This document shows positions 9,249 through 60,619 of a DNA stretch of 64,000 nt, in pieces. The translations under genes were made by a program, and so were the position numbers. Source of the DNA: Eledone cirrhosa. Taxonomy: Eukaryota. The notes below the pieces were generated by a model, which saw only the letters and a list, made by a program, of their open reading frames with translations, searched no databases and was not told where the DNA came from. Positions within the stretch are counted from its first letter, which is position 1. Every line of letters begins with the position of its first letter. The stretch covers positions 181,598,001 through 181,662,000 of the forward strand of contig OZ024740.1 in assembly GCA_964016885.1 (NCBI GenBank), read 5' to 3'.

Positions 9249-9476
9249 TGTATTATTTTTGACCGTCGGTCAGTCAATGGCAACATTGAGGACCGAGTAA
9301 GTTAGATCGCAGATATAAAAGACAGCGAGAAGCGAAAACCAACCAAACAGTGAGTGTGTTCTGTTATTAATACTGGCAATATTACGCAAATATGACCCTC
9401 CCCAAGTATAACAATATATATATATATATTACTGAAAAAGAACAAATGAACTATTATGACATTATAACAAGTTTAT

Positions 9477-9523
9477 TGTCGACAGTCGTTTCGTCCGACC
9501 ACATGGTGGGACTTTTCAAGGCA
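9477..9523 (-). ncRNA. Hammerhead, U3-A8 variant (inverted copy, one stem I mismatch)
   Basis: Reverse complement of 11277-11323 with two substitutions. Confidence 0.65.
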
Positions 9524-11276
9524 TATAACATGTGATCATTATTTACATCAACGTATCACTCAAGGCTAGCAGTTTGAAATTGTGGTATACAATTGTGGGC
9601 TTGGAGTTCGTAATATACCACCCCAGTCAAATCCACACTGGTTTTTTAACAACATAGCATGTAGACCAATACATCCTACGTAGCGAGACCTTGGACTTAG
9701 AACCGGCAGGCTGGTCTATCGCGAAAGCGTACAACCCCTGAAACTAAAAGATCGAACGGACCACATCCAGCAACCACTGGCTATTAGATCCACAGGTACA
9801 TCTCCCAGAGAGTCCACGCAACTGATAATGAATCCCAGTTGATCCATAAACTTTTAAACAAGACCAGCTGTGCCTGGAGCTATGCAGATGACTACATACG
9901 CATAATGGATATCGTGCCTGGAGCTATGCAGATGACTACATACGCATAATGGATATCGCGCCCACACGGTCACCAGTACTGTTCATCCTGTTGTATGTAT
10001 GTAAATATCCGTGCGTGGGATATCCCTGAGTACATTTTCTTGACCATCAATTGTTAATCGATTGTTTGTTAATTAGGCAGGAATATACCATTGTGTCTGT
10101 GCTAATCTATGTGTTGCTGTGTATGTGTAAAGTATCCGAGCGCGGGATATCCCTGAGCTAATTTTGCCTGACTGTTAATAGTGTTTTGATTACTTGTTAA
10201 TTAGGCAGGAATATATATTATTATGTCTTTGTTAATCCTGTATCAATAATTTTATAATAATATTTTGTGATAATACATTGTTAGATTACTGAAGCTACCT
10301 TATACCTTAATTAGGCAGGAATATATATTATTATGCCTTTGTTAATCCTGTATCAATAATTTTATAATAATTTTTTGTGATAATACATTGTTAGATTACT
10401 GAAGCTACCATATACCTTCTTAAAAATACATTTTTTAATTATTGTCTTTTTACTTATGTATTTTCTTATTTACCACTTTCTTTAATCTTGCCCGACTTGA
10501 TAAACTCCTTGAATTGCTCCCTAATTAAATTACTTAAATTACTTAAATTATTGTACCTATTATGCTTAAGTTGTATCTGTTGAAGCAGCCCTTTGAAAAT
10601 TCCTCGGATATCCCAAATACCGTCATTTTTAACTTTTAATGTATAATTTTCCTCAATTCGTATTTATATATATCCTTAAGGGCTCTCTAAAATGTTAATT
10701 CTTCGAAGGGTCTCTCGGAAGAAGTTCCTATTAAAAATATTAAAGGGGCCTTTTCTGAGAGAATTATAGAAGGCTCGTTGAATTAACCTTTAATTGATTA
10801 GTTTCTTTCAACTTAGAAGCGAATATCAAAACTTCGTAAGTTTTCTGAAATTTGTAAACGTGATCTCGGGGAAGAAGGTTTTTTTCTTTCGGAGAAAAAT
10901 GTTTTTTCTCTAGAAGGAATTTCATAGGAAACTTTATATATTTTTTAGGGAAATTTTATATTTTTATTTTTTATTTTATTAGCCTCTTAATTTCTTCTAG
11001 TCTAGTAGGTTTATTGGAGCCTGTAAGCTTTATGCACTTATTGAGGGATTTTCTAAGGTGCTTCTACGGGACCCCAAGTCTTTTAGTTTACTGTTAATGC
11101 GTAAATTATATATTATCTAATTTTTAAACTTCAATCCCTGACCCCGACAACTAATTTAAAAGAGCCCCCTTAGAATATAGACCCCAACTATACAAGCAGA
11201 GTTGCTGATGTATACTACAATTTCAAACTGCTAGCCTTGAGTGATACGTTGATGTAAATAATGATCACATGTTATA

Positions 11277-11323
11277 TGCCTTGAAAAGTCCCACCATGTG
11301 GTCGGACGAAACGGCTGTCGGCA
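11277..11323 (+). ncRNA. Type I hammerhead, U3-A8 core variant
   Basis: tgcc-TTGAAAA-gtcc-caccatgtggtc-ggac-GAAA-cggctg-TC-ggca, followed by AATAAA. Confidence 0.8.
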
Positions 11324-11566
11324 ATAAACTTGTTATAATGTCATAATAGTTCATTTGTTCTTTTTCACTAATATTTCTGCTCTGCGTATACGCATAGAGC
11401 TTAACTAGCTACCGTCACATATTTGGTAGGTCAGACGTGATAATCGCGATTCACATACGACCTACCATACATCTTACTTATATATATATATATATATATA
11501 TATATATATATATATATATATATATATATATATATTATTATGTAATAAACAACATAAGGCAATTAT

Positions 11567-11624
11567 TCCATTTACCAGTGGTTTCTTAAAAGCAAAAGGT
11601 TTTGCTTTCAATCCTCAGAATGAA
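11567..11624 (-). ncRNA. Type I hammerhead ribozyme
   Basis: Minus: ttcatt-CTGAGGA-ttgaaagcaaaa-cc-ttttgcttttaa-GAAA-ccactgg-TA-aatgga. Confidence 0.8.
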
Positions 11625-59500: not shown

Positions 59501-59519
59501 TATTTATAAAACCATATTT

Positions 59520-59579
59520 ATTCTATTATATATATTTCAAGGGAACCAAAAACTTTGGTACGCTTTCATCAGATAAAAT
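59520..59579 (-). ncRNA. Type I hammerhead (family A)
   Basis: Minus: attttat-CTGATGA-aag...ctt-GAAA-tatata-TA-atagaat. Confidence 0.8.
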
Positions 59580-59692
59580 TTTGACATAGCCAAGGAAAAC
59601 ATACCCTATCAGTTGAATATTCCTTGGAATATTCAACTGATAAGGTATGTTTTCCTTGGCTATGTCAAAATTTAAAAAAACACTCTTTGTAC

Positions 59693-59748
59693 TTTATCTG
59701 ATGAAAGCGTACCAAAGTTTTTGGTACCCTTGAAATATATATAATAGA
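59693..59748 (+). ncRNA. Type I hammerhead (family A)
   Basis: tttat-CTGATGA-aag-c-gtaccaaa-gtt-tttggtac-c-ctt-GAAA-tatata-TA-ataga. Confidence 0.85.
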
Positions 59749-60619
59749 ATAAATATGGTTTTATAAATATAGATTCCATTTATTTAATATCATTGAATAT
59801 TTACTCCAGAAATCTGTCGAGTGCACTGAATCAATTATAAACATTTATATTTGTTGAATTTCCAACAAATTAAATCCCTTCCACTTATATATATATATAT
59901 ATATATCCTCCATGTCATATATCTCTATATCCTCTATGTCATATCTGTATATCCCCCTCCATGTCATACGCACCATGTAGAGTTTTACTGAACCTTTATT
60001 TAACAGAGAGTTGCTATAGCTTCCCTACCCTTCGTTTCCTGGCTGTCCGGTTCTTATTCTGATGTTGCTGATAACCCTTCTTTGATCAACTTCTCCTACA
60101 CATTAATTAGATACTTATTAATTATGCAGAGCTCAGTGTACACACTCATGGTACCTGTTTACAACATCATGGACTGAGCAATCAAGATAGAAATGAATAC
60201 CAAGACAGCTGTATGAAAAAGTGCAGGGCGACCAAAATTGATGGAAGTTACAGAGTAGGTAGACCCAGAAAAACCTGTGAAATTTAAATAAATTCCAACC
60301 TTACACACTTACACCTCTCTAAGACAATGTCACTGGACCGAGATCTTTGGCGCACGCACTAATACAGAAGACCCACCTTGCCTAAGTAAAAAGCGAAACC
60401 TAGTCAGTAGGCACCTCTTAACCAAATATACACCAAATCACACTACCCCTACTCCATTCTCCCATTCCTACCAACAAAACCCTCTCTCTGTAAAGTTATG
60501 TTAGTAACAACATCCAGTCCGAACTAATGAGAGCGTGTAGGAGTCAAGACAAAAAAACACACAGGCAACGCTGTAATGTGGCCGTGTAAGAAACATGGTA
60601 AAAACCTCCCAGTCCACAC

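Follow-up and report, generated by a model that had tools for sequence, protein, structure and literature searches.

The 64,000-nucleotide stretch analysed here (the window; Eledone cirrhosa contig OZ024740.1, assembly GCA_964016885.1, positions 181,598,001 to 181,662,000 of the forward strand) is rich in (TA)n tracts containing elements with inverted arms. Judged by their sequences, the families involved are mostly 5′-truncated copies of Hydra-clade Penelope-like elements (PLEs) sharing one origin, with most insertions made up of a pair of 3′ ends, both heavily truncated. As stated in the original prediction for this locus, both 3′ ends point outward into (TA)n, one on a short arm and the other on an arm extended by a tail. 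Here we describe a twin-hairpin RNA element of these families, in which one bulged hairpin lies just past each of the two positions where arms end.

Family A, an autonomous Hydra-clade family, is present as a 5′-truncated insertion at 9428..11478 with its short end at left (minus-strand arm, 166 bp) and its long end at right (plus-strand arm, ∼1.9 kb). Hairpin 1 of this copy (11379..11402, +) begins 4 nt past the short-end site, and a hammerhead motif occurs at 11280..11319 (+) and again at 9481-9520 (−), with a U3-A8 core variant of a type described in PMC4209133. Family B (11534..11793; hairpin 1 at 11734-11756) has the same orientation and a doubtful hammerhead, with core-like letters at 11640-11652 and an unclear stem II. 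The autonomous Hydra-clade family C (15301..16314; hammerhead-like motif at 16145-16178, hairpin 1 at 16239-16264) and the older insertion of family D (16342..16923) are likewise short at left and long at right. Hairpin 1 of D has been damaged by deletion and mutation in the window copy, and the pairing proposed for it at 16796-16837 was wrong: the true 3′ strand, located ∼70 nt downstream in copies that are intact, is missing here. Different families stand back to back in a single (TA)n tract at 9426-11793 and at 15293-16945, so that such tracts appear to act as repeated landing sites.

Two further insertions, thought to represent separate families, both belong to autonomous Hydra-clade family E. 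One lies at 38951..39577 (short end left, long end right; hammerhead 39381-39429, hairpin 1 39491-39512) and the other at 59471..59884 (hammerheads 59527-59572 [−] and 59698-59743 [+], hairpin 1 59803-59824). Family F (45306..47240, short end left) has hammerheads at 45365-45393 (−) and 47057-47085 (+) and hairpin 1 at 47146-47199. This hairpin and those of A, B, C and both E copies lie where they had been predicted. The expected long end of F in (TA)n is absent, however, as the tail of the window copy instead enters a foreign reverse transcriptase (RT) fragment at 47240-47950, which has a SIPFSQLLR motif, is not Hydra-like and follows the tail at a short duplication; a template switch between PLE clades is possible. 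The 3′ untranslated arm of F also contains a 96-bp tandem repeat (4.8 copies, 45576-46040). Family K (1..2628; hairpin 1 2540-2586, long end 2628, short end just left of the window) had been overlooked, and its minus-strand arm retains a Hydra-type RT-thumb/endonuclease remnant with a CxCx5C linker.

A non-coding tandem unit of 595 bp, family H (11870..13007), has its long end on the inverted arm at left and its short end at right, with hammerheads at 12255-12335 and 12850-12930. Hairpin 1, which has a long apical part, lies 5 nt past the short-end site (12421..12482, +), and hairpin 2 lies 7 nt past the long-end site (12588..12606, +, also 11993-12011). H is the sole read-through example in the window, with both hairpins visible. 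A second such unit, family J (∼1.3 kb), also lacks a Hydra open reading frame (ORF); at locus L252 (G000:C1:130880000-130889999) it forms a 1,322-bp non-coding tandem array with a hammerhead and both hairpins in each unit. Pattern matching and inspection identified hammerhead cores and stems, whose cleavage is putative, in A, E, F, H, K and J; the hammerhead of the window copy of D is damaged. Rfam models did not detect these motifs.

The 3.0-Gb genome was searched with the arm of each family, the tail being left out of the A, B, C, D and F queries and included for E. Each search scored the best 40 candidates, and 60 loci were extended inward. Nearly all distinct arm ends from six families (232 of 251) fall at two positions per family, site 1 at short ends and site 2 at long ends, a bimodality that had been foreseen together with the pairing of the two kinds of end. 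Among 65 inverted pairs, which include four from the window itself and three doubtful cases that may join different subfamilies (L189, L182 and L204), 59 are short-long, 4 long-long and 2 short-short (binomial p 5e-12 against independence). Very short partner arms may go undetected; long-long pairs cannot, and ∼30 of these would be expected. A re-count of families J and E with short references and a 450-nt window is excluded from these figures. The same 59 pairs show the PLE insertion unit, an inverted 5′-truncated copy with a tail at one end only.

Inner junctions vary from copy to copy and insertions span 211-4,776 bp, and since the junctions vary freely, each insertion appears to be assembled anew. 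Outer ends are fixed relative to the hairpins, with median distances of 3-9 nt at 14 sites and an overlap of 0-6 nt with (TA)n. In 8 of the 59 pairs (A 3/8, C 1/13, D 4/6) the long arm ends at site 1 and thus consists of the tail only, as it does in 4 of 29 pairs of a further family, P; this pile-up is suggestive only. Arm ends show no peak at the hammerhead cleavage site, where single arms stop occasionally.

Family P, encountered incidentally, comprises very abundant tiny fold-back insertions (L002, L089, L205, L317 and others). Its tails have an inverted short partner within 450 nt in 29 of 40 cases, and 28 of 40 end at the identical base. Both arms mostly stop near hammerhead loop II, 55-72 nt upstream of site 1.

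Hairpin 1 consists of RCTC, a family-specific stem of 2-5 bp, a variable loop, a 2-nt bulge starting with U, and GAGY, usually followed by RC; the original prediction had captured the hairpin without its conserved 3′ bulge or upper stem. The exact motif pattern has 7,209 genome-wide matches, compared with 9 for the reversed control. A covariance model returned 18 matches at E<0.1 in 200 kb of arbitrary DNA (four stretches), and this density, if it holds, would give a few hundred thousand copies genome-wide. In the same DNA, 18 of 22 covariance-model matches have a (TA)5 run 26-69 nt downstream, versus a background of 4%, as expected for insertion into (TA)n.

The predicted covariation is also present. 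Among 25 family representatives, which were picked by eye and of which some are related, the first two upper pairs are Watson-Crick in 24, versus 10.7 and 13.2 in shuffles. In 18 short-loop representatives 95% of cells are paired and five of eight pairs have two-sided changes, values not reached in any of 500 shuffles, and RNAalifold returns the same structure. Single-sequence folding gives weak support (z −3.6 to +0.3), so the case for the hairpin rests on comparison. An Rfam search of the window and six loci gave no match attributable to the hairpins, its matches being microRNA models on simple repeats or palindromes.

In E, F, J and K, copies reading through the long-end site carry a second hairpin immediately after that site and immediately before an AUG, a pattern with 402 genome matches versus 1 for the control. 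The presence of hairpin 2 was then predicted beforehand for A and C, using patterns in which a CTC within 14-16 nt of the long end was the sole requirement. All 11 family A sites continue into the same 5′ arm of hairpin 2, and the nine examined contain this hairpin in full, its unusual 3′ letters matching those of hairpin 1 of A; in family C it is present at 8 of 12 sites. The non-coding unit H retains both hairpins, as judged from incidental copies, the genome search for H having yielded no candidates, not even the copy in the window. Hairpin 2 is not copied at long ends and is visible only in read-through leaders, which are ordered hammerhead, site 1, hairpin 1, a ∼20-nt segment X, site 2, hairpin 2, a ∼20-nt segment X′ and AUG. 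Most copies are expected to be dead ends because they lack hairpin 2. Thus, rather than one hairpin primed from either side, as first envisaged, there are two, and each end lies 5′ of its own.

The two hairpins of a leader also resemble each other in detail. Families A and H have private 3′ letters common to both hairpins, and in the leaders at L433, L437 and L453 both have switched jointly to TCTC/GAGA. These changes suggest that the two copies co-adapt to one protein.

Read-through copies enter ORFs with RW(R/K), DKT and CxCx5C motifs and without CCHH. RWR or RWL and DKT, its D-K invariant, are present in the ORFs of A, C, E, F, K and O, an N-terminal piece of K shows HSDKT, and CNCx5C followed by VY..YIG with a single Cys is found in E, F and K. 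The downstream ORFs of A, C, E, F and K are homologous and of Hydra type, and the elements of the window are therefore not the six unrelated families first supposed. In Craig et al. (2021, PMC8557442), the Hydra clade is defined by RW(K/R), DKT, CxCx5C and the lack of CCHH, targets (TA)n, and has a listed Octopus member. The likeness extends to a C-terminal GIY-YIG-type ORF and hammerheads. The assignment was made by motifs and by comparison by eye with reference proteins from the published supplement, and on comparison with the published definition an initial guess, the Neptune clade, was dropped. Named matches among the closest homologues of the element protein come from Argonauta. A Pfam scan assigned no family, and the viral contigs searched contained no relatives.

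Our findings differ from the available text of that paper on three points: it describes no leader structure, it gives tails of 30-40 bp for PLEs in general whereas those in the window are ∼60-165 nt, and the use of the same signal by non-coding tandem units (H and J) is seen here. A claim that the system was undescribed was overstated. The clade is named, and publications already report the tail, its asymmetry (one side only) and two internal start sites; the second hairpin, and with it the twin-hairpin RNA element, is new. We found no twin-hairpin scaffold in Rfam or in the literature searched, which did not extend to subscription journals and Repbase notes.

The twin hairpins are not confined to octopus. 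A scan of marine metagenomes identified 77 Hydra-like loci, whose leaders were tested with a model built from octopus hairpin 1 alone; it matched both leaders and 3′ ends. Among the 49 loci whose leader reaches 170 nt or more, two hairpins are present in 33, one in 12 and none in 4, whereas two hairpins were found in 0 of 147 ORF windows and 0 of 49 antisense leaders. In 29 non-redundant leaders the upper pairs of hairpin 1, with the 5′ arm chosen without regard to the upper stem, are formed in 27, 23 and 20 cases, versus 13.5, 10.8 and 8.1 in shuffles, and the outer pair varies among G-C, U-A and A-U. The first AUG lies 3-43 nt after hairpin 2. Among 28 second copies within contigs, 11 stop at the contig end, 2 read through and 15 do neither; 11 of these 15, 3′ copies ending inside the contig, stop 0-4 nt before a hairpin, six at hairpin 1 and five at hairpin 2. 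Published consensus sequences, compared by eye, agree: both hairpins stand at the start of Hydra-1_Ajap (sea cucumber), hairpin 1 stands at the end of Hydra-2_Ajap and of Hydra-2_Amil (coral), and variants occur in the Hydra entries from sea louse and Octopus bimaculoides. The covarying, cross-phylum RNA element in this known retrotransposon clade is real.

The segments X, after hairpin 1, and X′, after hairpin 2, are complementary in a near-constant register with family-specific sequence. In the 29 non-redundant metagenomic leaders, one of which is mis-parsed and was kept, the cognate X/X′ duplex averages −11.1 kcal/mol versus −6.0 for non-cognate combinations (permutation p ∼1e-5).

Two other elements of the window have paired ends and no bulged hairpin. 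One belongs to another PLE clade (6871..9413), has its long end at left (∼60-70-nt tail) and its short end at right, inserts into (TA)n and has a zinc-finger pattern that differs from that of the Hydra-clade families. The other, family G, is a 465-bp hammerhead array (22439..24963), short at left and long at right, with bimodal, paired ends ∼60 nt apart on the unit; its best match to the covariance model has E=2. The two-ended structure claimed for this array and for the 595-bp element therefore holds, while only the 595-bp element carries the hairpins. The array is young, with 99% identity among many loci, and its unit itself contains a (TA)n tract. By eye, the sequence following its long-end site is similar to that following the short-end site in the 6871-9413 element, and it may be a passenger of that element's clade. 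Since both elements have paired ends and neither has the hairpin, the two-ended PLE architecture is general and already in print, and the twin hairpin is specific to the Hydra clade. Apart from these elements, the window contains at least six copies of a family resembling short interspersed elements (13286-13405, 18808-18924, 40057-40533, 43195-43370 and 49794-49968).

We consider it probable, at roughly 0.7, that each insertion consists of two inverted, 5′-truncated Hydra-clade copies whose ends, 0-11 bases before hairpin 1 or hairpin 2, were set by hairpins that dock the RT to start on both nicked strands of (TA)n. The X/X′ helix would give the RNA pseudo-two-fold symmetry, with one hairpin-plus-site unit at either end, and two RT-endonuclease units, probably a homodimer, would each bind one hairpin. 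The endonuclease would nick both (TA)n strands, and each 3′-OH would be passed to the single-stranded, A/U-rich stretch immediately preceding a hairpin, where it could pair over 0-6 nt. The two cDNAs would then run upstream, stop at variable points and join head to head, with the site-2 cDNA carrying the tail, the site-1 cDNA lacking it, and the tail corresponding to the distance between sites. Hairpin 2 would be left behind at long ends and renewed only by read-through of a tandem transcript. This dual-priming model would explain why ends are bimodal and paired, why the arms are inverted and why long ends lack hairpin 2.

Priming on both strands by a PLE ribonucleoprotein (RNP) is plausible by analogy, as it fits in vitro data for PAc, a lizard PLE (PMC11167929). 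In that system both strands are cleaved and extended, two internal start sites match the tail ends, RNA 3′ of the start region is needed, a dimer is predicted, and the hammerhead is dispensable for insertion in vitro. PAc and Poseidon elements thus resemble the Hydra families in having two fixed ends that bound the tail, nicking and extension of both strands, an AT-rich target and a predicted dimer (PMC11167929). However, the available text of that study reports no conserved anchor or short/long coupling, and its in vitro start sites are the same on both strands. The 96-nt PAc RNA (Fig. S1) contains, by eye, no RCTC/GAGY hairpin. Starts on PAc are called non-homologous to the target, whereas the window families overlap it by 0-6 nt (PMC11167929).

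Structured RNAs that bind an RT and fix the start of synthesis are familiar from hepadnavirus epsilon (also a bulged stem-loop), the R2 3′ untranslated region and telomerase RNA. These are single elements, whereas here a duplicated element lies 3′ of each start. Epsilon moreover provides the template from its bulge, with a protein primer, and the telomerase boundary, located 5′ of the template, brings synthesis to a halt. The telomerase template-boundary analogy originally drawn for these hairpins runs in the wrong direction for a sense template: each hairpin is 3′ of its site on the sense strand, behind the start, and long arms include a copy of hairpin 1. In the L1 twin priming that Ostertag and Kazazian reportedly described in 2001, both target strands prime on the RNA and a head-to-head inversion results. 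Tail-only long arms beside a short arm (8/59 pairs) share this geometry; in L1, however, the event is an occasional accident at variable internal sites, while here it is the rule at two fixed sites, each marked by a structure.

An alternative, which we regard as improbable, is that the template is antisense RNA, with the inner junction a self-primed start and the protein-bound hairpins acting as stops before the cDNA joins (TA)n. Self-priming on such a template was put forward in PMC3846280 on the basis of palindromic junctions and intron retention, family P has many junctions of the palindromic kind, and the X/X′ pairing shows no preference for the sense strand. Stops are hard to reconcile with short-long pairing in 59 of 65 insertions, though; the hammerhead sits on the sense strand, and initiation on PAc has been mapped on the template RNA at the tail ends. 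We assign a similarly low likelihood to trimming at the DNA level, whereby the endonuclease would bind the hairpins in cDNA or a tandem intermediate and cut AT-rich sites 5′ of them. Craig et al. attribute the tail to endonuclease resolution (PMC8557442), and recognition by the Drosophila virilis endonuclease required the tail, according to work cited in PMC11167929; the sites are AT-rich like the target, and covariation cannot separate RNA from single-stranded DNA. But long ends lack hairpin 2, most simply because no copy of it was ever made, the 25 octopus hairpins contain G-U-type pairs over A-C/C-A-type pairs by 8 to 2 in a selected count, and the PAc start sites explain the tail without trimming.

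The twin hairpin, ending ∼20 nt before the AUG, might instead serve translation or RNP capture, with ends set only by ATAT microhomology with the target. The short distance from hairpin 2 to the first AUG and the 3-6-nt overlap with (TA)n at most sites are compatible with this idea. It is nonetheless doubtful, and somewhat more so than the preceding two: AT-alternating words are abundant in leaders, yet the ends keep a constant offset from the hairpin even where overlap is zero, and non-coding H retains both hairpins. Miniature inverted-repeat transposable elements (MITEs), or fold-back units copied from a master with one short and one long end, would match the terminal inverted arms, the TA targets and the correlated arm lengths of family P (rho 0.46, n=29), but this origin is very improbable and largely refuted by junctions and spans that differ per copy and by arms that are the 3′ ends of RT-encoding PLEs.

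Several observations weigh against the dual-priming model itself. The median (TA)n overlap is 0 at 4 of 14 sites, so annealing to the target is not general. Strand displacement or a second RNA is needed where long arms extend far beyond site 1, as they often do. Paired short and long ends in array G and the 6871-9413 element show that the architecture can arise without the motif. The connecting helix is weaker in the octopus genome (p=0.005, n=9 after two relatives were dropped), is absent in the standard register in A (−1.7 kcal/mol) and does not appear in the predicted fold of H. Moreover, the sense duplex is the better one in only 11 of 28 leaders, and G-U pairs number 32 in sense and 43 in antisense, so the strand or polymer that folds cannot be read from the pairing. 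The CTC/GAG core is invariant, leaving covariation to its outer pair alone; hairpin 2 has an upper stem that is weak past the first pair (12 and 15 of 29 Watson-Crick). The selection of octopus representatives by eye also counts here, the metagenomic set being the cleaner test. Finally, the mechanism proposed for Hydra elements is inferred from sequence.

Whether the hairpins amount to a dedicated scaffold is an evenly balanced question. In this form of the dual-priming model, a pseudo-two-fold RNA of ∼100-170 nt, made of two identical bulged hairpins flanking a family-specific helix, would hold a homodimeric RT-endonuclease and program simultaneous priming on two strands, a hard-wired twin priming, and could be a portable internal-initiation signal for cargo RNA. 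If true, hard-wired twin priming would explain both the PLE tail and the inverted structure, whose origin is named as an open question in the field's papers, for elements whose RTs are the sister group of telomerase. The motif offers mutable handles in its two hairpins, one helix and two start sites, and is also a sensitive marker for a very abundant class of repeats.

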